Shown: positions 4,307 through 32,209 of the stretch, piece by piece
How the letters are laid out: each line of letters starts with the position of its first letter
Numbering within the stretch: position 1 is the stretch's first letter
Source: a virus
Lineage: Duplodnaviria > Heunggongvirae > Uroviricota > Caudoviricetes
Virus record (IMG/VR): IMGVR_UViG_2802429251_000009
Direction: 5' to 3' (one strand)
DNA: 32,209 bases
Translations under genes and position numbers: made by a program
The notes under the pieces: generated by a model
Seen by the model: the letters and a program-made list of their open reading frames with translations, nothing else
Databases searched by the model: none
What the model was told of the DNA's origin: nothing

Positions 4307-5272
4307 ATGATTCGATCTCTCGTTAAATGGCCCGGTGGTAAAGGCCGCGTTATGCCTGATTTGCTGCCGATTCTGCCGAAAGCCGATTGCCTGGTGGAAC
4401 CGTTTGTCGGCGGTGCTTCTGTTTTCCTCAATACTGAATATCGCCGTTATATCCTGGGTGATATCAACCCAGATTTAATTAACCTGTATCGCCAGATAAC
4501 CCGCTGGCCTGATGCGGTGATCGACGCTGCTCGCCCACTGTTTAAAGTGTACGGCGATAAAGACGGCTATAAGTGGATCCGCGATGATTTCAACGCCCGC
4601 GCCCGTGACCTACTGTCATTGCGCAGTGTGTTTGAAGATGGGCCGGACGCGGGCAAGATTCTTCGTGCAGCACAATTTCTTTACCTGAACCGTCACGGAT
4701 ATAACGGCGTAGTACGCTACAACCAACAGGGTGGATATAACGTTCCCTTTGGGCGTCACAAAACCCCGCCTTACTTCCCGGAAGAACAAATCCGTTTATT
4801 CTCTGAAAAAGCTAACGACACGAAAGCTATTTTCGTGTGCTGCGATTTCCAGAGCACGTTAAAAATCATGATTGGTAGTGACGCGGTTATCTATTGCGAT
4901 CCGCCATATCTGCCAACAAGCGAAACCGCTAATTTCACCCAATACCACACCGCCCCGTTTGGGATTAAAGAGCATCGCCAGTTAGCTGCCGCTCAGCTGG
5001 ATATTAACCGCCTTACTGGTTCGCCGGTGATCCTGTCTAATAGCGACACCCCAGCCACCCGCGAGATTTATCGCTCTTTCAACTTCCAGGAAATTATCGT
5101 TAACCGTTCTGTCAGCGCGAACGCCATTACCAGAGGGGCCGCCAGTGAAGTGATCGGCGTCCTCAAAGTCTGCGCGACTTGTCGCCGTGCCGGTGGTGGG
5201 TGCTGTCCTGACTGCGGCCCTTGTGCTGGTTATTCCGTGTGGGGTGGAGCGGCTGACGAGGTGCTCTTCTGA
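4307..5272 (+). CDS. dam: DNA adenine methyltransferase (Dam family, GATC-type) with a Cys/Gly-rich C-terminal extension
   Basis: N-terminal KWPGGK motif, catalytic DPPY motif and a C-terminal NRSVSAN region parallel E. coli Dam; about 40 extra C-terminal residues (CATCRRAGGGCCPDCGPC). Confidence 0.85.
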   Translation: MIRSLVKWPGGKGRVMPDLLPILPKADCLVEPFVGGASVFLNTEYRRYILGDINPDLINLYRQITRWPDAVIDAARPLFKVYGDKDGYKWIRDDFNARARDLLSLRSVFEDGPDAGKILRAAQFLYLNRHGYNGVVRYNQQGGYNVPFGRHKTPPYFPEEQIRLFSEKANDTKAIFVCCDFQSTLKIMIGSDAVIYCDPPYLPTSETANFTQYHTAPFGIKEHRQLAAAQLDINRLTGSPVILSNSDTPATREIYRSFNFQEIIVNRSVSANAITRGAASEVIGVLKVCATCRRAGGGCCPDCGPCAGYSVWGGAADEVLF

Positions 5273-5493
5273 TGGCTAGCAAAATTAATAACGGTCTTTC
5301 GGAATACCAGCGCGGCGCACTGGCTGCGCTTAACGAAGCCAAAACACTGGCCCTTGCACACGCAACGTTGGCGGGTGTTCTCGCCGGAAGTGAAGCCGCA
5401 AACACGCTGTTGATTTCTTTCAATGTGTTACTCGACCCGCTAATCGAAAAGCATTCCCAGCGGGAGGGTGATAGCGGGGCATCCAATGTCTGA
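5272..5493 (+). CDS. Small hypothetical protein (73 aa)
   Basis: ATG overlaps the dam stop (TGATG); Ala/Leu-rich; overlaps the gpA start. Coding status uncertain. Confidence 0.35.
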   Translation: MASKINNGLSEYQRGALAALNEAKTLALAHATLAGVLAGSEAANTLLISFNVLLDPLIEKHSQREGDSGASNV

Positions 5494-8101
5494 CACCGCT
5501 TTTGCATGGCCCTGGAACGCGCCGCGCCCAGCTATTGGCCTGTACACCTACGAACCGAAAAAAATCGCCCCGCTTGCAGGGGCGGTGGTACATCATCCAG
5601 CCGTAAAAAAACACATCGATCACATCTTCAAACGCGCCGGTTACAACCCCGACGAGGTTCGGGACCGTAACGCGCTTATCCAGGCGCTGGACAGGCACGA
5701 ACCGTGCGGCCTGCTACTGGCCGCCCATCAAAATATAATCCGGCAGGAAATGGAAGCCGCTAAAGCTACGACGGCAGCCTGGGTCAATACGCCGGAGGGT
5801 GTCGAAGCGCGTTTATTATCAGAGCCGTTCTTCATTCGTGAAGTCTGGCGTAAAAAAATTGAGTGGTTACGGGTCAACCGTGAAACCAGACACACCAATG
5901 ATTTTCTTATGGGGACCGTGAAAAAATCATTGCTGCGTCTTGATGTTGTACGCACAAGGCAAGGTGTTTCGCCTGATATCACCGGCGAACTGGCTGCGTA
6001 CTGGTTCGGGCGCTGGCAACGTCTGGCTGATTTCACAAAGCGGGAAGCACTGAGCGCCGCTAATGAGATCGCCAGCCGCATGGCTGAAATGCTGGGGACG
6101 GAATGCGAAGCCCTGGGACGGAATGTTTCAGACATGAACGTCGAAGAATTGGACTGGCTTTATTACCACCTGGGCCGCGAAATGCTGGCGCTTCGCATTG
6201 TACCGCCTGCATGGTATGCGCCGTGGGAACGCGAGCGCATATGCACGGCCATTTTGCGTATGGCTTCGCCTGACTGGTGGGGGCGTAAAATCTGGCGCTT
6301 GCGTTGTGACTGGCGCGAGAACCAGCTGCGTGCTGTTGGCGCGGTAAATAAAAAAGCGCACGCCTACGTTAGCGTTTCCAGCCTGATCGAGTGGCAGGAA
6401 CAGCGCCGTAAAAACCGGGATTTTTTCAAAAGTCATGAACTGGTAGACGAATACGGCAACGTTTCGTCGCTTGAGGAAATGATTAATAAATCCACGTCTA
6501 ACCCGGCTATTCGTCGCCATGAGCTTATGGCCCGAATGGCTGGGGTTGAGCTTGTCGCCCAAAGTCGCGGCGATGTTGGCATCTTCCTGACCATCACTTG
6601 CCCGTCGAAATATCACAGTAATATTGCGTCCGGCCACCATAACGCCAAATGGAATCATTCCACCGTCGCCCAGGCGCAGCGCTATTTATGCCGAGTATGG
6701 AACCGGGCAACCGCCAAACTGAAACGCGAAGATTTGCGCCCTTACGGCTTCCGCGTCGCTGAGCCGCATCATGATGGGACACCACACTGGCACGCATTGC
6801 TATTTATGCCACAAGAGCAAGTTAAAGCTACGGTTGCGATCCTTCGCGCCTACTTCATTGCGGAAGACCGCGACGAGCTGGGCCGCAATACCGGTGCTCG
6901 TTTCAAGTCAAAAAAAATGGACCCACGGAAAGGGTCAGCAACGGCGTATATCGCGAAATACATTTCGAAGAATATCGACGGCCACGCGCTGGCCGGTGAA
7001 CTGGACGACGAAAGCGGCAAGCCGCTGAATGAAACAGCCAAATATGCAATGGCCTGGGCGTCACTTCACCGCATCCGCCAGTTTCAGCCCATCGGACAGC
7101 CGCCCATATCGGTTTACCGCGAGCTGCGCAAACTGAGCAATCAGATCACGACCCGCCAGAAAATTGACAATACCTTCAAGCGCGGTGCGCCGTTGCTTGT
7201 GGATCCTGCAATGGATGCGGTTTGCGCCGCTGCCGATGTCGGGTGCTTTGCTACCTACATCATCCGCCAGGGGGGTGTTTTGATCCCGCGTGAAAACTAT
7301 GTCGTCCGTCTGGCCTATCAGCCAGCTGATGAAATGAATGCTTATTGTGAGATCCCCGAAAAGGTTTTCGGGGTCTGGTCGCCGCGTCTGGGTGATGCCT
7401 CCCGTATTAGCACCCGTCTGGTTAAATGGAAAATCCGCGCCAAATCCAAAGCCGCCACCGGGGCCAGAAACGGCCCCGGTTTGGGGGTTGACCTTTTGCC
7501 GTCGCCAACCGGCGGCGCTTGGAGTTCTGTCAATAACTCTACGGAAGACGAAAAAATCACCGATTTTTCGCTTGGTGTGGAGGGTATTACAGAAGAATCA
7601 GAAGAGGAAATCGTCGATTTTGAAAATATGGACCAGCCAACGCGGCGCAAATTGATGCGGCGACTACGTGAAACACCATTCAAAAGGCAGCAAAGCGGAT
7701 CACCTTATGAGCCAAGCAGCGAATTAGATGTCGCCTGGCGTTCTGCCGTGGAAAAAACCGAGGCCAGATCGGAGGCTGAAAAAGCCAGACGGGCGGCTCT
7801 TGCCCCTGCGATTGCCAGCCTGCTGGCTGATGCGACGTTGTATTCGGTTGAGATTTCAGAGATTCAGGCCGTTTCGCTGTTAATGGGGAGCCGTCTGGAG
7901 ATAGACGGCAAAGTTTATCAGGCCAGCGCTGACGGCCAGTTGATAACACGTCAATTACCCGATGATGCACGGACGATAAATAAATTATGGGAACGCCTGC
8001 GGGATAACCACGGCATTGATGCCACGCGCCTGCGCTTTGATCCGGTCGGGGAGTATCAAAAAATGCTGGCGGGTGTGGAAGGTCGTCTCCCAAAAGAATG
8101 A
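5486..8101 (+). CDS. Replication initiation endonuclease, P2 gpA-like (rolling-circle HUH nuclease)
   Basis: About 870 aa; HUH-type motif HHDGTPHWHALLF and catalytic tyrosine region TAYIAKYISKNIDG. The ORF track starts at GTG 5468; the first ATG is 5486. Start is ambiguous. Confidence 0.85.
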   Translation: MSDTAFAWPWNAPRPAIGLYTYEPKKIAPLAGAVVHHPAVKKHIDHIFKRAGYNPDEVRDRNALIQALDRHEPCGLLLAAHQNIIRQEMEAAKATTAAWVNTPEGVEARLLSEPFFIREVWRKKIEWLRVNRETRHTNDFLMGTVKKSLLRLDVVRTRQGVSPDITGELAAYWFGRWQRLADFTKREALSAANEIASRMAEMLGTECEALGRNVSDMNVEELDWLYYHLGREMLALRIVPPAWYAPWERERICTAILRMASPDWWGRKIWRLRCDWRENQLRAVGAVNKKAHAYVSVSSLIEWQEQRRKNRDFFKSHELVDEYGNVSSLEEMINKSTSNPAIRRHELMARMAGVELVAQSRGDVGIFLTITCPSKYHSNIASGHHNAKWNHSTVAQAQRYLCRVWNRATAKLKREDLRPYGFRVAEPHHDGTPHWHALLFMPQEQVKATVAILRAYFIAEDRDELGRNTGARFKSKKMDPRKGSATAYIAKYISKNIDGHALAGELDDESGKPLNETAKYAMAWASLHRIRQFQPIGQPPISVYRELRKLSNQITTRQKIDNTFKRGAPLLVDPAMDAVCAAADVGCFATYIIRQGGVLIPRENYVVRLAYQPADEMNAYCEIPEKVFGVWSPRLGDASRISTRLVKWKIRAKSKAATGARNGPGLGVDLLPSPTGGAWSSVNNSTEDEKITDFSLGVEGITEESEEEIVDFENMDQPTRRKLMRRLRETPFKRQQSGSPYEPSSELDVAWRSAVEKTEARSEAEKARRAALAPAIASLLADATLYSVEISEIQAVSLLMGSRLEIDGKVYQASADGQLITRQLPDDARTINKLWERLRDNHGIDATRLRFDPVGEYQKMLAGVEGRLPKE

Positions 8102-8323
8102 ATGCAATCGCGCTGGCCGTCGCAACTGGTTGCGTCGGTTGGCGTGATTCTGCGGGTGCGGGCGGCAAAGAGCCCGGTAGTCAATTTAGCCACTTGAAAG
8201 GAATGCTATGTTCAATATGCCTCAAAAGGTATTGTTTCTGCTAGATAGAAACTGTAATAATGCTATGGTATTTTACCTACCACCGATTATCTTTCAGGTA
8301 AGCTAGATTTTGATGGAGCAATA

Positions 8324-9373
8324 ATGGTTGATATAGAAGAAGTTATTACTAAGAAAAGAAATTCATTAAAGGCCGATCGTTTAGATATGTCTTTTGGTGA
8401 ATTGATGAATATGTTTGAAGACGGAGATTTATTCATCACTCCTGAATATCAAAGGGCATTTCGTTGGTCTAATTTTCAACAAACAAGATTTATTGAGTCT
8501 GTTTTATTGGGAATACCGATCCCCCCGATTTTTGTAGCAGAAGATGATAAGGGAAAATGGGAGGTTGTTGATGGCTTACAGCGTATATCAACAATTTTTT
8601 CATTTTTTGGTGTTCTTACTAATCTCCCAGAAAAAAACAACCTGAAACTATGCAAAGGAGAAATGGTTGCCGAGTTAGAAAATATAACTATTGATGCTCT
8701 TCCAATCAGATTAAAAACAACCATTAAAAGAGCAGTTTGTAGAGTTGAGATTGTTCGCTGGGATAGTAACGAAGATATTAGGTATGAACTATTTAATCGA
8801 CTGAATACAGGGGCTAGCCCGTTATCTGATCAAGAGATAAGAAACTGTATTTTTAGATCATACCCTGTTGATTTAAATAAAATATTGCGTGAAATTGCAG
8901 TTATGCCAAATTTCATTGAGTTGATTAACCCTTCAGCAGCTAAAAAAGAAGAAATGTTTTTAGAGGAGTTAGTGCTTCGCTATTTTGCTTTTAAACATTT
9001 TGATGGTGATTTTAATACTACTGTTCCTAATTTCCTTTCAGACTTCATGCGCTCCGTGTCGAAAGGTGACATTGCTTTTGATTTAGATTGTGAAAAAAAA
9101 TCATTTGTTGAGTTAATTGATTTCTTAATATCTCATGGCGGCAAGGAGTTATTTAGACCTAATGGACCTTTTGCCTTACATCTTTTTGATTCTATATCAT
9201 ACGCTTTGCCAAAAGTATTCGATACTGTCATTGGTAATGAGCAAAAAATTACAGAAGCTATAAATACATTGCTTACTGACGAAAAATATCAAAGTATTAG
9301 CGTGCTCACATTCTCAACTGCACGTACTCGTAATCGGATGGATCGAGCTTTAGAGATTTTCAAAAGTGCATAG
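8324..9373 (+). CDS. DUF262 (ParB/GmrS-N-like) domain protein without an HNH/DUF1524 domain; candidate defence-system component
   Basis: N-terminal signature ITPEYQRAFRWSNFQQTRFIESVLLGIPIPPIF...KWEVVDGLQRISTI; GGAG SD 7 nt upstream; strongly AT-rich; no H-N-H motif seen in the C-terminal half. Confidence 0.75.
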   Translation: MVDIEEVITKKRNSLKADRLDMSFGELMNMFEDGDLFITPEYQRAFRWSNFQQTRFIESVLLGIPIPPIFVAEDDKGKWEVVDGLQRISTIFSFFGVLTNLPEKNNLKLCKGEMVAELENITIDALPIRLKTTIKRAVCRVEIVRWDSNEDIRYELFNRLNTGASPLSDQEIRNCIFRSYPVDLNKILREIAVMPNFIELINPSAAKKEEMFLEELVLRYFAFKHFDGDFNTTVPNFLSDFMRSVSKGDIAFDLDCEKKSFVELIDFLISHGGKELFRPNGPFALHLFDSISYALPKVFDTVIGNEQKITEAINTLLTDEKYQSISVLTFSTARTRNRMDRALEIFKSA

Positions 9374-9986
9374 TTTAGTGGCTGAAATTTATGAAACAAA
9401 CTCCTGGCGAGATGGGGAGTTTGCTAAATTTAGAGTCAACCCCCATCAAGTAGACCCTGTTTTATGGGGGCGGATGTGTGTACCGATGATTTATGCAAAC
9501 TGGGAGGGTTTTGTAGTTAGTTCATTAAAAATGCTTTTAAAGCATTTAAATAAATTAGAACTAACCCCATTACAAATACCTACTAGATTAGTTGTAGTTG
9601 GATTAGGTGACACATATAGAAGTTTAAGTGGGAAGCAATCATTTGAACAACGATGTGAGTTCACTGATAAATTTAATGAGTTATTAAAAAAAACCGTTAA
9701 ATTTAAGACAAAAATTGAAACTAAATCGAATTTGCATAGTGGTGTATTGAAAGAACTATGTCAAATGTTTGCTTTTGATTTTGAAAGATTTAGTGACGTA
9801 ACTGTTACTCTAGATCGTCTTGTTCAAGTGAGAAACTGTATTGCACATGGAGAAAACTCGATTTTACCAACTCAGGAAAATATTGAGTTATACATCGATG
9901 CAGTGAAAGCAGCAATTGATATCATGTTAGAAGAAATTGACTTGTTTTTAACGCAAGAAAGTTATTTATATAAACAGCAAGCCTAA
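9366..9986 (+). CDS. Small protein with HEPN-like Rx4H motif (RNCIAHGE); candidate effector partner of the DUF262 protein
   Basis: GTG start overlaps the upstream stop by 8 nt (coupled); alternative in-frame ATG at 9474. The motif assignment is by eye only. Confidence 0.5.
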   Translation: MHSLVAEIYETNSWRDGEFAKFRVNPHQVDPVLWGRMCVPMIYANWEGFVVSSLKMLLKHLNKLELTPLQIPTRLVVVGLGDTYRSLSGKQSFEQRCEFTDKFNELLKKTVKFKTKIETKSNLHSGVLKELCQMFAFDFERFSDVTVTLDRLVQVRNCIAHGENSILPTQENIELYIDAVKAAIDIMLEEIDLFLTQESYLYKQQA

Positions 9987-10021
9987 AATAAATACTCCGC
10001 CTTAAAGGCGGAGTATTTATT
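9987..10021. terminator. Bidirectional intrinsic terminator, perfect 15-bp stem with 5-nt loop
   Basis: aataaatactccgcc-ttaaa-ggcggagtatttatt read directly; sits between the convergent cargo operon (+) and the zinc-finger/portal operon (-). Confidence 0.65.
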
Positions 10022-10334
10022 GTTGAAGTAATTCCAATGCTATCTGGCGTTCTTCCGGCTTGAGTCGATCAATTAGAAATTTAACCAGCTTGTTGCCGGT
10101 CAGTCCGCTGGGGCTTAGGGTATGTGAAAACTGGGCGTTAAAAACAAAGGTGTGGCCGCATTCAACTTCCGTGCAGGCGCAGTATAAATCAGCCAGTTTT
10201 TTGTCTTTCCAGTCAGATTTACGAATGATGGCCGGTGAGCCGCATTCAGGACATTTAATTTTAAAAACTCGCATGTTCACCATCCCGCACGCCATTGCTA
10301 ACAATGGGGATGATTTTAACTTAACTGCGCTCAT
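10017..10334 (-). CDS. Ogr/Delta-family zinc-finger protein (late-gene activator type)
   Basis: C-x2-C-x22-C-x4-C arrangement with CPECGS...Y.CACTEVECGHTF, resembling P2 Ogr and P4 Delta; start overlaps the portal stop (ATGA). An internal ATG (MRVFKIKCPECG) is an alternative start. Confidence 0.6.
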   Translation of the reverse strand: MSAVKLKSSPLLAMACGMVNMRVFKIKCPECGSPAIIRKSDWKDKKLADLYCACTEVECGHTFVFNAQFSHTLSPSGLTGNKLVKFLIDRLKPEERQIALELLQQ

Positions 10335-11392
10335 TTTTCGCCCTTTTCGGTGGTGATTGCCGGGATATCTACATCAAAATGCAGGTGCAAATGTGGGGGG
10401 ATCTCCGGGTCATTGTTGACGCCGTTCATTAGCTTGCGCTGCAACGGGATAACTTCATCCTTGCGATAGGTTGTGCGGGCGGTTTCAGGGTTGCCCATTA
10501 CCGCGCCATTGGTCGGGATGATACCTGCCAGCCCTGCGGGGAAACGGTGAGCGGTAAAGATATCCTGCGCGGTGATCCCTTTGATGTTGGCAAATTCATC
10601 CTTTGCGCTGACTTCGCCCACAGGCATGATTTTAACCCCTTCCGGGTCGCCCTTCGGGATGTTGATAAACATATTGCGGAAGTTACCCAGCCCTTTGGAC
10701 TGGGCGATCTTCTCTTTGATTTCGTTTTCCATTTCCAGCGTCAGATTCGGATCGCTGGTATAGAGAATAAAGCCCATATGCGCCCCGTTATTGTAGTAAC
10801 GGCGCCGGAAGATGGTTGCCTCACTGTTGAGTAACACCGAATGGATGCCGCCGATATAGTCAGGCAGGCCATATACCTGCTGGCGCGGGTCGTACATTTT
10901 AAAGAAAACGATGTCTTCCGGGTCATAGATAAGCGCTGGCCCTTCCTGCAGAACGGCAAACGAGCCGTCTTTCCGGCAGCGCAGATACAACGACGGCAGC
11001 GGCAGCAGGTCGATCACTTCCCCGAATACGTTACGAATTTTCAGGATAGCGATGTCACCAAACAGCAGGTAATCAAAGACAGCCTGTTCGACCTGGTCAG
11101 GTGTCAGGCCGCCGCCAATATAGCCACCGGCCACCATATTGCGCCGCGCATACAGCACCCCACCATGCTGGCCGTTAAGGTTCGGCAACTGGGCCAGCGC
11201 CAGGCGATCAATCGGGAGTCGCCAGTGGTCATATTCATTGTCATACCAGATATTGTGATAATCCGTGCCGGTCGTCAGGATGGGTTCGGGTTCGCCAAAT
11301 GTGATCACGCTTCCGCGCCCTGGCGTGAAGGTTTCAACCTTGCTGCCGGTCATGGACCTGAATTTTTTATTTTTACGCTGTTTCTTTGTCAT
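10331..11392 (-). CDS. Portal protein, P2 gpQ-like
   Basis: 353 aa; position and orientation as in P2; 4-nt overlap with the terminase gene. Confidence 0.9.
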   Translation of the reverse strand: MTKKQRKNKKFRSMTGSKVETFTPGRGSVITFGEPEPILTTGTDYHNIWYDNEYDHWRLPIDRLALAQLPNLNGQHGGVLYARRNMVAGGYIGGGLTPDQVEQAVFDYLLFGDIAILKIRNVFGEVIDLLPLPSLYLRCRKDGSFAVLQEGPALIYDPEDIVFFKMYDPRQQVYGLPDYIGGIHSVLLNSEATIFRRRYYNNGAHMGFILYTSDPNLTLEMENEIKEKIAQSKGLGNFRNMFINIPKGDPEGVKIMPVGEVSAKDEFANIKGITAQDIFTAHRFPAGLAGIIPTNGAVMGNPETARTTYRKDEVIPLQRKLMNGVNNDPEIPPHLHLHFDVDIPAITTEKGEK

Positions 11393-28936: not shown

Positions 28937-30661
28937 ATGAAACCAATTAAACGCCTGTACCTTTCCTCTGATCCGGTCCATCTGATTGACTGCAATATCG
29001 TGCTGGAGCTGAACGCGTGCGGTCGGGGGTTTATTACGGCGGGGACAGAGACAGATTACACCGGCAAAATGGTGCGTATCGATGTTGGTTATGATGGTCT
29101 GGTCCTGCGCTGGTTTACCGGATACGTCGAACGGTCACAGCCTGCTGATAATGGAACATGCCGGTTGTTCGTGCGTGAGCTGGTCGGCATCTTTGATAAA
29201 TTGTGGCCGTGTTCTTTCCAGCATCCAACGTTGCGCCAGATTACTGACTGGATAAGTGAGCAAAGCGGGCTGACCGTCACAACGCCGGTCGGCGCTGCTT
29301 ATGCAGATAAACCGATCCCCCACTTTACGCACAGCGGCACGGGCTACCAGCTTTTTGCCAGTCTGGGCCGAGCATTTTCAGTGACGGATTATCTTTGGTA
29401 TCAGCTGCCGGACGGGGATGTCTTCGTCGGTGCTGCTGAGCACAGTCTTTTTGCGGGTAAACCAGTAGAGATCCCGCACGAATTTAGCCAGGCATCGGCG
29501 GGCGGCAATTCAATGGTTGTGCCGATGATTCAGAGCCTGCGCCCGGGTGCTGAGGTGAACGGCCAGCGGTTAAACCAGGTCCGGCTAAATAACGACGACA
29601 TGACAATCACCTGGCAGCCATGCAACAAAGCCAACGGCCAGCCATTGCAAAAATCACCCATTCAGCGGCAGATTGAAAACGCATTCCCGGAGCTGGCAAG
29701 CGGCCTGCATCTTCCAAAATTCGCCAGGGTGGAAGCGCCAAGCGAGGATGTTTCAGGGGGTAATATTGCCGATCCATTCCGCCCGCGCTATGCCGTGGAT
29801 CTCCAGCTGCTTGACGAATACGGCAAGCCAGCCGCAAATACGCCGGTTTATTCTGCCGTTCCGCTACCTGTACCAATGGCGGGCAGCGAGTCGGGAATGT
29901 TCCAGTTTCCGCCCCCTGGCACGCTGGTTGAAATCGGGTTCACTGAGGGGCGGCAGGATAAGCCCTTCGTGCGCCAGATTATGGCGGAGGGTCATAACCT
30001 GCCAGCGGTTAAACCCGGCGAGCAGTTGCAGCAACAGCGCGATGGTGTATCGCAGCGCGTGACGGTTGCCGGAGACTGGGAACGCCAGACGGACCAGACA
30101 ATCCGCGAAAACTCCATGATGCGCGAAGTCACCACCGACGAAGAGATCCGCAAAGTGGTTGTCCGTGAAACTACGGTCCAGGCAACGGATAAAACAACCG
30201 TGCTTGGCACGGCCACTCTTCTGGCCGGGGCGGTGGTCCATATCAGCGAGGGTGATTACAGTATCGGCACATCCGGCAACCTGACAGTAACCTGCAGCAA
30301 GGACAATTCCGTCAGTGTTGGCCGGAACGCAAAACGGGACGTCGCGGGCGATGTTACAGACGACGTGAAAGGGAATGTCACGTCAAACGTCAGCGGCGCA
30401 CTGACTGAGAAAATCAGCGGTATCCGCCGAAGTGTGGCCCAGGCGCAACAGCTGATTGCCCCGGTGGTAAAACTGGGAAGCGAAGAGATTAACGTCCTGA
30501 CACTACTCACCGACACCCTGGACGTGGTGAGGGAACTGGCAGAGACTGCCGCGTCACATACTCACCCCAACACAGGGGCCAGCGGGCAGGCTGCGCAGTT
30601 CAGCGCAACGGCCACTAAAACCGGTACATTGAAAAGCAAATACGGTCCCCTGATAGCCTGA
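28937..30661 (+). CDS. Putative baseplate hub / central spike protein (gpD-gpV-like, VgrG-like fusion)
   Basis: 574 aa; C-terminal third has repetitive V/T/D/G-rich beta-helix-like segments and an HTHPNTG (H-x-H) motif near the end, as at spike apexes; last gene of the tail cluster. Confidence 0.45.
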   Translation: MKPIKRLYLSSDPVHLIDCNIVLELNACGRGFITAGTETDYTGKMVRIDVGYDGLVLRWFTGYVERSQPADNGTCRLFVRELVGIFDKLWPCSFQHPTLRQITDWISEQSGLTVTTPVGAAYADKPIPHFTHSGTGYQLFASLGRAFSVTDYLWYQLPDGDVFVGAAEHSLFAGKPVEIPHEFSQASAGGNSMVVPMIQSLRPGAEVNGQRLNQVRLNNDDMTITWQPCNKANGQPLQKSPIQRQIENAFPELASGLHLPKFARVEAPSEDVSGGNIADPFRPRYAVDLQLLDEYGKPAANTPVYSAVPLPVPMAGSESGMFQFPPPGTLVEIGFTEGRQDKPFVRQIMAEGHNLPAVKPGEQLQQQRDGVSQRVTVAGDWERQTDQTIRENSMMREVTTDEEIRKVVVRETTVQATDKTTVLGTATLLAGAVVHISEGDYSIGTSGNLTVTCSKDNSVSVGRNAKRDVAGDVTDDVKGNVTSNVSGALTEKISGIRRSVAQAQQLIAPVVKLGSEEINVLTLLTDTLDVVRELAETAASHTHPNTGASGQAAQFSATATKTGTLKSKYGPLIA

Positions 30662-30854
30662 CAAAAACGGCATTACCGCACACCTCACCAGACACCACAG
30701 AACGCGCCACAGCAGGCGCAAATATTAAAGGTCGCCACCGTGCGGCCTTTCTTTCGTTTGTTCAACAGCGGCCCACAGCGTAAGCGACAGCAGGCAGACG
30801 GAAGCGGATCCAAGACGGAAACGGCGCTACACCGCACCCGCCTGCGCAGTTTGG

Positions 30855-30966
30855 ATCATAAAAATTTTGCAAAAGAAATTTTGTGCAAAGCACCCCGCCA
30901 GCCTGCGCCGCTGCTGGGCTTTTGCATCCTGCGGGCGTTTGCACTCTGCGCAAAGATTTGCAGCAC
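30855..30966. repeat. Cluster of TTTGCA-containing motifs, including the 10-bp palindrome TTTTGCAAAA
   Basis: TTTGCA at ~30856, 30911, 30928, 30948 and 30958, plus GCAAAG variants at ~30871 and 30938; a third palindrome copy at ~31144-31153. Read directly. Confidence 0.5.
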
Positions 30967-31243
30967 TTTGCAAAAGTCACCGCGTCGCCAGTCGCTAACC
31001 GACTGGATAACATGATGTTTTTAAAAGGATCGTTTTAGTTTCCGTGACGATCAAAATGATTCGGTTGTATCCGATGGTTTTCGGGGGCGGATATTGTGAA
31101 GCCTTGTGCGGCGCGGGCTGGCGGCTAGTTTGCTTTTATTTGGGTTTTGCAAAATGATGCACGAAGTTTTGATAAAAGGATCTCTAGCTAAGGGGGAGGG
31201 AACGTATAAAAACCCCCGCCCTCTGGGTGATATTTTGTTCTAT

Positions 31244-32209
31244 TTATAGAAGTTTACTTACTGAAATCAGTTTGGGAGATTTAATGCCAATCTCACATAA
31301 TGTTGTATGATGTGCTTCACGCTCAGTTTCCTGATAATAGGTGGCTATCCATTCCGTATTTTTACTAACAATGCTATGTATAAAAGAAAAGTAGGGAACA
31401 TCTACAGATGATAACGAATGGCCGATGATGATGATTTCGTCTACGTTACTGAGATTTTTAAAAAATTTAGCGCTGTCAGCAATGACTTTTTCAGTATTCT
31501 TAAAAGAAGAAGTGAAGTATTTATTAATAGTCTGCTTTCCCATTTCATAAGAGTGATCGTAATTATCAGCCATCCACTGACGCCACTCTTCAAGTTCTTC
31601 ATCGGTTGCATTTTCGGGCGGGACTGCTTCCTTTTCTTCAAAGTTGATAGGGTCAATACCATGACCTAAAATCAACTGTTGATCTGATGATGCTTTCCCA
31701 TGAATATATAAAATTTGTCTATCATCAATACTATAATATTTCTGAAGAGTGTCAGTGTAATTAAAACTGATAAAGATAGAATCAGAATCGATACGCAATC
31801 TTTTTTTTAAATTAAGTTCGGGGTAGTTAACCTGCAATATAAATGACTTGAATTGTGTTAAAAGTCCCTCGGTTAAATTTTCTAGTATACGTTCCATTTC
31901 AATGGATAATGAGTTCCAGTCCCTGTCACGAAAATCGGGGCTGCTAATTTGGGGTAAAAGATAGCTAAACTCTTCGAGCACCGACTCTGTATCCAGACCC
32001 GCTAAGCTGTTTTCGAAATCAGACCAAAGAGAATGTTTTGACTTATCAACTGCGGAAAGAGAAGGGGGTAAGTCAGTAAATCCCATAAACTCAACCAAGT
32101 GATCGTAAATGTCTCGATCTTTCTTCCGAAGATAATCCCCAAATGAGAAATAGCTCGTGTCAAGTTCGTGATGCAGATCAAACCCATTCCCGATGATGTA
32201 TAGCTTCAT
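31244..32209 (-). CDS. AbiH-like abortive-infection family protein (candidate)
   Basis: N-terminus MKLYIIGNGFDLHHELDTSY matches the IIGNGFD motif I associate with the AbiH family; strongly AT-rich; ATG is the last codon position of the window, so the promoter lies outside. Confidence 0.5.
   Translation of the reverse strand: MKLYIIGNGFDLHHELDTSYFSFGDYLRKKDRDIYDHLVEFMGFTDLPPSLSAVDKSKHSLWSDFENSLAGLDTESVLEEFSYLLPQISSPDFRDRDWNSLSIEMERILENLTEGLLTQFKSFILQVNYPELNLKKRLRIDSDSIFISFNYTDTLQKYYSIDDRQILYIHGKASSDQQLILGHGIDPINFEEKEAVPPENATDEELEEWRQWMADNYDHSYEMGKQTINKYFTSSFKNTEKVIADSAKFFKNLSNVDEIIIIGHSLSSVDVPYFSFIHSIVSKNTEWIATYYQETEREAHHTTLCEIGIKSPKLISVSKLL

Follow-up and report, generated by a model that had tools for sequence, protein, structure and literature searches.

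A two-gene defence system combining a DUF262 protein with a HEPN protein has been described in Escherichia coli ECOR65 under the name PD-T4-2 (Vassallo 2022, PMC9519451). Its two open reading frames (ORFs), described as "DUF262, HEPN", protect strain K-12 from T4 when present on a plasmid, and their deletion from native ECOR65 restores T4 plaquing; by HHpred, PD-T4-2A corresponds to PF03235, and the top families of PD-T4-2B are PF18735 (probability 97.8) and PF18737 (96.9) (PMC9519451). Modified DNA is the target of the DUF262 proteins of GmrSD, BrxU, and SspE (reviewed in PMC10952713): the DUF262 nucleoside triphosphatase (NTPase) senses the modified DNA, and nucleotide hydrolysis switches on the attached nuclease (PMC10952713, PMC12065111). 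PD-T4-2, Menshen, and Dazbog are listed in reviews as DUF262 systems lacking the DUF1524 domain and still uncharacterised; for Menshen (NsnABC), NsnA has been proposed to be a DNA sensor driving an RNase effector (Bell et al., NAR 2025, PMC12065111). HEPN defence RNases, in turn, respond to a phage cue by cutting tRNA or mRNA (preprint 10.64898/2026.02.22.705581), and a survey of HEPN proteins lists "operon with ParB" for the RiboL-PSP and MAE_28990 types (Anantharaman et al. 2013, PMC3710099). Here, we analysed a stretch of 32,209 nucleotides (nt) of a P2-like prophage (IMG/VR record IMGVR_UViG_2802429251_000009), referred to below as the window, which carries a cassette of two overlapping genes, A and B, encoding a DUF262 protein and a HEPN protein, respectively. 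The cassette is probably a PD-T4-2-type anti-phage system, a moron cargo of P2 hotspot #1 that most likely serves to exclude superinfecting phages, and comparative evidence gives good support to its interpretation as a defence locus.

The domain content proposed in an initial annotation of this DNA, namely a DUF262 protein devoid of an HNH motif followed by a small overlapping HEPN-like protein with an Rx4H motif, was borne out in every part. Protein A (349 amino acids [aa]) matched GmrSD_N/DUF262 as its sole Pfam family (E=2.2e-27, residues 27-177) and gave no match to DUF1524/HNH in Pfam at E<=1. Its DGLQR motif is intact (residues 83-87), and the residues invariant in 57 diverse homologues were D83, G84, Q86, and R87 (the DGxQR motif), R159, L160, and N161, E171, and R173. 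Protein B (206 aa) matched HEPN_RiboL-PSP (PF18735, 6.6e-21) and HEPN_MAE_28990 (PF18737, 2e-18). It shows the hallmark of the HEPN superfamily, an Rx4-6H motif within a four-helix up-down bundle; the motif reads RNCIAH and spans residues 156-161, and in a broad alignment of the B family Y43, E47, R156, N157, H161, and G162 were invariant. Sequence searches of the PDB revealed no solved relative of B, and for A they returned an N-terminal motif match only, to a single DUF262 protein (9jfl).

The likeness to PD-T4-2 begins with the layout, since in both loci a DUF262 protein of about 350-365 aa comes first and a small HEPN protein second, and DUF1524 is absent from both. The PADLOC profile PD-T4-2_A (PDLC04027) aligned with protein A over its full length (E=1.3e-47, 160.6 bits, model positions 41-362 of 363), and the two families heading the HHpred assignments of PD-T4-2B are those matched directly by B. 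The two systems differ in that A scored higher on the NsnA profile than on PD-T4-2_A, and in the second gene, whose product is 206 aa long here versus roughly 165 aa in PD-T4-2. The latter difference lies within the range of the family, since shorter variants exist, such as the 177-aa protein of the Moraxella catarrhalis Mcat phages. All 57 diverse homologues of A matched both NsnA and PD-T4-2_A with moderate scores, none of them at the level of a close member (the best E value with PD-T4-2_A was 6e-56). Searches with tblastn against phage records found no close PD-T4-2 carrier with A and nothing with B at E<=0.01; the B partners in other phages were recognised by profile hidden Markov models.

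Several observations weigh against assigning the cassette to the PD-T4-2 type or against the function proposed for it. Protein B did not match the PADLOC model PD-T4-2_B (PDLC04028) even at E<=10, and only 2 of 61 diverse members of the B family touched that model at all, the best of them with an E value of 2.3e-4. The kinship to the validated system is suggested by the profile of A and the shared Pfam families, and protection against phage by the present lineage would be expected by analogy with its relatives. A consensus promoter scan detected no sigma-70-like promoter on the plus strand 5' of gene A; the cassette may therefore be transcribed by read-through from the early (replication gene A) operon. 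In the AlphaFold2 model of protein A, built on a shallow alignment of too similar sequences, the predicted local distance difference test score was below 50 over residues 4-120, i.e., in the DUF262 domain, and a Foldseek search of the PDB with this poor model returned noise only. Finally, the sensor-to-RNase logic set out below is borrowed from GmrSD, BrxU, SspE, and other HEPN systems, because our literature search found no paper explaining how PD-T4-2 or the present lineage works. Since A matches PD-T4-2_A but B fails PD-T4-2_B, the locus is, judged by its profiles, a sister lineage of PD-T4-2A and NsnA that is paired with a canonical RiboL-PSP/MAE_28990 HEPN protein.

The best PADLOC match of protein A was NsnA (1.6e-66, 223 bits, model positions 42-381 of 385), with which it aligned end to end, through the ParB-DUF262 part and the C-terminal helical "ParBDB" region; the SspE, Orf5, and HEC-06 models aligned solely to the N-terminal ~35-100 residues. 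This match is the point in favour of a degenerate Menshen system or of cargo unconnected with defence, A being either an orphan NsnA or a ParB-like factor of prophage DNA metabolism and B having no relation to defence. We consider such an origin highly improbable. Protein B matched no Nsn model of PADLOC, and the cargo comprises two genes only, with the terminator and ogr following directly after A and B. It contains nothing like the NsnB transducer (an ATP-binding cassette ATPase with DUF3696) or the NsnC effector (inPIN-BECR), a single HEPN protein being found instead, and the locus is therefore not Menshen. Across the 80 loci described below, the HEPN gene is the invariable partner and no third gene is conserved. 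As for a non-defence role, the pair is also found at chromosomal sites outside phages and is hence not a phage replication function, and the close relative SW5 lacks the pair, so the prophage can do without it.

To survey the pair more broadly, B relatives were collected by a profile search in which each species was represented by one genome, reaching down to about 20% identity. The resulting 80 loci came from Alpha-, Beta-, Gamma-, and Deltaproteobacteria, Campylobacterota, Bacteroidota, Firmicutes, Actinomycetota, Cyanobacteria, and Nitrospinota. An A-like DUF262 gene was located immediately 5' of B and on the same strand in 76 of them, and two of the four exceptions were contig edges. A third conserved gene was sought in the same loci and none was found, the largest cluster of flanking genes being present in 9 of the 80. 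Recurrent neighbours were DNA methyltransferases (D12, N6_N4, and Eco57I), an IceA-like restriction enzyme, integrases, and a minimal nucleotidyltransferase (MNT); the pair thus keeps the company of defence and mobile-element genes. In some Lachnospiraceae loci, nearby MNT genes are part of a different pair adjacent to this one. A full-library profile search yielded 1,853 clusters of B relatives at 50% identity, 908 of them at E<=1e-10, and in the top 150 clusters all the proteins were stand-alone, most of about 200-240 aa, with no fusions.

At closer range, homologues were found throughout the Gamma- and Betaproteobacteria, with identities of about 70% for A and about 60% for B. In the closer loci, including chromosomal sites in Pseudoalteromonas and Gallionellales, B followed directly after A with the same overlap in nine cases out of nine. 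A near-identical A protein was present on at least 1,000 Salmonella contigs, and the exact A and B proteins on 46 and 44 Escherichia draft-assembly contigs, respectively; the cassette is thus common in Salmonella and E. coli prophages, with relatives in many phyla. In searches for near and distant DNA, the locus of the window itself was not found among 5,426 complete E. coli genomes and 50,697 phage records. The ratio of nonsynonymous to synonymous substitution rates (dN/dS) was 0.04-0.24 for A and B (0.08-0.12 for gene A) with dS saturated, which indicates strong purifying selection. Together with the conservation of the pair across phyla, these low values argue that the locus is more than a chance association.

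Pairs of the same kind were also noticed in other temperate phages, where they are annotated as hypothetical proteins or carry automated domain notes only. Peduovirus P2_4B2 of E. coli (L005, NC_049387) has such a pair at positions 140-2015, in the same hotspot and adjacent to its replication gene. The DUF262 protein there has 381 aa and 34% identity with A; the HEPN protein, of the MAE_28990 type, has 239 aa and the motif RNDLAH. The record lists the two as hypothetical, and next to them is a DNA methyltransferase gene. An A-like DUF262 gene with a B-family HEPN gene was likewise present in Terrisporobacter phage TVCOM_ph1, M. catarrhalis Mcat phages, and Vibrio cyclitrophicus phage PE004 (L092 2471-4352, L093 2354-4223, and L094 2339-4610). 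Their HEPN partners are 250, 177, and 355 aa long, respectively, and all have an R(R)NxxAH-type motif; the Moraxella protein aligned to positions 46-209 of the B profile. All three pairs adjoin the repressor/lysogeny region, and in the Terrisporobacter phage a DNA methyltransferase gene follows. In five loci from Campylobacterota and Firmicutes (L041, L052, L054, L055, and L073), an N6_N4 methyltransferase gene lies 5' of the pair and genes for an IceA-like restriction endonuclease and a D12 methyltransferase 3' of it; given these flanking genes, the pair is embedded in a restriction-modification cluster, which fits the "ParB nuclease and DNA methylase" operons of the 2013 survey.

With GmrSD, BrxU, and SspE, protein A shares an N-terminal DUF262 NTPase domain with DGxQR followed by a helical domain. 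It differs from them in being just 349 aa long and in having no DUF1524/HNH domain, the effector being a separate RNase-type protein; since there is no HNH domain, the locus is not GmrSD-like. One could nevertheless envisage a type IV restriction-like activity, in which A would be a ParB-type nuclease or nickase attacking modified phage DNA and conferring direct immunity, with B as an accessory or back-up RNase. The term "ParB nuclease" used for the partner in the 2013 survey (PMC3710099) would agree with this, as would the action of the DUF262 proteins of the three systems on modified DNA (PMC10952713), the presence of DNA methyltransferases and a restriction enzyme next to the pair in some phyla, and the selection of PD-T4-2 on T4, whose DNA carries glucosyl-hydroxymethylcytosine (PMC9519451). 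We find it quite unlikely all the same. The characterised DUF262 enzymes cut DNA via the very HNH domain that is absent here, the invariant residues of A constitute the NTP-binding DGxQR and RLN motifs, and the invariance of Rx4H throughout the B family speaks for B as the catalytic effector instead of an accessory.

The HEPN fold with an invariant Rx4H motif is also what links B to the HEPN RNases DARNA/PD-T7-3, ApeA, HepS, AbiF/AbiD, Csm6, and HepT. Those, however, sense infection via extra domains of their own, cyclic oligoadenylates, MNT antitoxins, or phage proteins, whereas the partner of B is a DUF262 NTPase. DARNA was considered as the identity of the locus and rejected, as DARNA is PD-T7-3. 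An alternative reading is a toxin-antitoxin or addiction module, with B a constitutively toxic HEPN RNase and A its protein antitoxin, stabilising the prophage or island, and with defence at most a by-product. Several features make such a module unlikely. In the HEPN-MNT modules of types II and VII the toxin is accompanied by an adjacent minimal nucleotidyltransferase, while the only partner of B is the DUF262 protein, and a 349-aa protein with conserved NTPase motifs is unlike the known HEPN antitoxins. Moreover, A is more conserved than B, the mean column identity being 77% versus 66%. Neither tandem repeats nor an Rfam match above noise were detected in the cargo, hence nothing resembling RNA antitoxin repeats, and a type III module with an RNA antitoxin was dropped as a candidate.

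Alleles with a disrupted A and an intact B would also be unexpected if B were a constitutive toxin, a weak argument since they could reflect sequencing errors. In the Salmonella enterica contig L001 (GCA_005494805.1), a run of eight adenines in gene A (9093-9100 of the window) is shortened to seven (about 7718-7739 of the contig), which truncates A to 263 aa. This 1-bp deletion was present on three contigs, and B there retains all the catalytic residues. A separate allele has A split into fragments of 156 and 177 aa. The disruptions could represent sequencing error, decay, or an on/off switch.

Among the readings considered, the split between a sensor and an effector, already suggested in the initial annotation, is the most reasonable one for this PD-T4-2-type cassette. 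Protein A would act as the sensor/regulator; its ligand is probably phage DNA, possibly modified like that of T-even phages, or a DNA state specific to phages. Coupled translation should fix the A:B stoichiometry, and A probably keeps B inactive; the translational coupling and the near-absolute co-occurrence of the two genes argue for a stoichiometric A-B complex. Upon infection, a nucleotide-dependent switch of A involving DGLQR would release or activate B. The latter, a predicted stand-alone HEPN endoribonuclease (RNxIAHGEN), would then cleave cellular and/or phage RNA, either tRNA or mRNA, which would stop translation and abort the infection. Protection against phage, the target sensed by A, the A-B complex, the substrate of B, and an abortive as opposed to a direct mode of immunity are the elements of this scheme that we infer.

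A more far-reaching proposal, which we make tentatively and hold to be possible rather than probable, is that the lineage forms a distinct pan-bacterial defence family (about 1,850 B clusters) in which a DUF262 sensor of DNA or its modification is wired directly to a HEPN RNase with no ATPase transducer. If so, recognition of foreign DNA would be converted into cleavage of RNA and not of DNA. Constraints at an interface between A, B, and DNA would then explain why A is so unusually conserved, with about 70% identity from gamma- to betaproteobacteria.

The features of the cassette are listed in Table 1. As proposed in the initial annotation, the locus has its own Shine-Dalgarno sequence, B overlaps A, and a perfect bidirectional terminator-like palindrome closes the locus. 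The overlap, of 8 nt, couples the translation of the two genes: most close homologues have the junction (G/A)TGCATA(G/A) at the corresponding site. The B form annotated in databases has 202 aa and a GTG start at 9378; we prefer the 206-aa form starting at 9366 because the overlap junction is conserved and has ATG in several genomes. The palindrome is predicted to fold strongly on both strands, with energies of -24.6 kcal/mol on the plus strand (z -7.3) and -22.9 kcal/mol on the minus strand (z -6.5), and it accompanies the cassette in L001 and in two further loci (L007 and L008); a consensus terminator scanner did not flag it. The 147-nt leader 5' of gene A contains an inverted repeat, GTTTCT-N7-AGAAAC (8234-8252), which could be an operator.

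Table 1. Features of the DUF262-HEPN cassette and its surroundings in the window
Feature	Coordinates	Strand	Basis
Gene A, DUF262 (ParB/Srx-fold NTPase) plus helical C-terminal domain, presumed DNA sensor/regulator	8324..9373	+	Pfam, PADLOC
Gene B, HEPN (RiboL-PSP/MAE_28990 type), GTG start, presumed RNase effector	9366..9986	+	Pfam
A/B start/stop overlap of 8 nt, GTGCATAG, translational coupling	9366..9373	+	Sequence and homologues
Shine-Dalgarno GGAG, 5 nt before the gene A ATG	8315..8318	+	Read from sequence
Perfect palindrome, terminator-like hairpin in both orientations, lying between convergent B and ogr	9987..10021		17-nt arms, 100% complementary
Variable AT-rich cargo, P2 hotspot between the gpA gene and ogr/portal	8177..10044		SW5 homology breakpoints and GC content
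P2 gpA-type replication endonuclease, left flank (context, not cargo)	5468..8101	+	94% identical to L001 gene with Pfam Phage_GPA
Ogr/Delta zinc-finger activator, right flank (context, not cargo)	10017..10334	-	Pfam Ogr_Delta 2.4e-17
Portal gene, right flank (context, not cargo)	10331..11392	-	98% identical to L001 gene with Pfam Phage_portal

The window is a P2-like (Peduoviridae) prophage whose portal-terminase-scaffold block is 97.6% identical to those of Salmonella phages SW5, SW3, and SI7; the S. enterica contig L001 is collinear with it, with 96% identity over 12.5 kb. P2 defence hotspot #1 is defined as the interval from the replication endonuclease gene to the portal gene (Vassallo 2022, PMC9519451), and the placement of an AT-rich insert in this tin/old hotspot, as claimed in the initial annotation, proved correct. 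The extent given there, 8185-10021, was right in position and slightly too narrow: homology with SW5 stops at 8176 and restarts at 10045, delimiting a cargo of ~1.87 kb. The content of guanine plus cytosine drops to 0.29-0.39 over 8150-10000, against 0.50-0.58 in the flanks. The ogr-like gene is placed between the cargo and the portal gene, and both are convergent to the cargo. The slot of SW5, among the closest sequenced phages, is occupied instead by a 66-aa hypothetical protein and an orphan DNA methylase (L006 4006-5080); given the break in homology and this different content between the same breakpoints, the segment is exchangeable. The small ORF and methylase of SW5 represent an alternative cargo that might itself have an anti-restriction or defence function. 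The cassette was found at the same hotspot in P2-like prophages whose gpA proteins are 94%, 72%, and 37% identical to that of the window. The description of P2/P4 hotspots by Rousset (2022) does not mention DUF262.

The initial annotation had presented the cassette as a candidate uncharacterised system and could not tell whether it had been named; a new or unnamed design is not supported, since "DUF262, HEPN" is already the description of T4-validated PD-T4-2 and ParB-HEPN operons were tabulated in 2013. The latter listing agrees with the present loci in the methylase neighbours seen in some phyla, and differs in being purely computational and in giving neither a system name nor experiments nor the setting of a prophage hotspot. 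The architecture is thus known, and by its profiles the locus is a divergent lineage of a named, experimentally validated kind and not a new class. Since B fails the PD-T4-2_B model, the two-protein definition of PADLOC would probably not call the pair, and immune functions carried by Salmonella and E. coli prophages may consequently be under-counted, which bears on phage therapy and on censuses of defence systems. We found no paper describing control of a HEPN RNase by a DUF262 NTPase, in PD-T4-2 or elsewhere. The compact, conserved two-gene version with clear catalytic residues should be a convenient model for DUF262-HEPN coupling, of moderate mechanistic value.

Further genes of possible relevance to defence lie elsewhere in the window. 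Just 5' of the gpA gene, the prophage backbone encodes a D12-class (Dam-type) N6-adenine DNA methyltransferase (4307-5272, plus strand, Pfam 2.1e-57). It is not part of the cassette, since SW5, which has no DUF262-HEPN cargo, also has methyltransferases there; it could alter how sensors of DNA modification perceive this phage. At the right end of the window lies a second defence gene, coding for an AbiH abortive-infection protein (31244-32209, minus strand; Pfam AbiH 7.9e-62, PADLOC AbiH 1.3e-29); because its ATG is the last triplet of the window, its promoter and any partner fall outside. It is preceded by a 574-aa ORF (28937-30661, plus strand), which had no Pfam or PADLOC match, and by a 91-aa ORF (30740-31015), both of which could be tail-fibre-related or further cargo.

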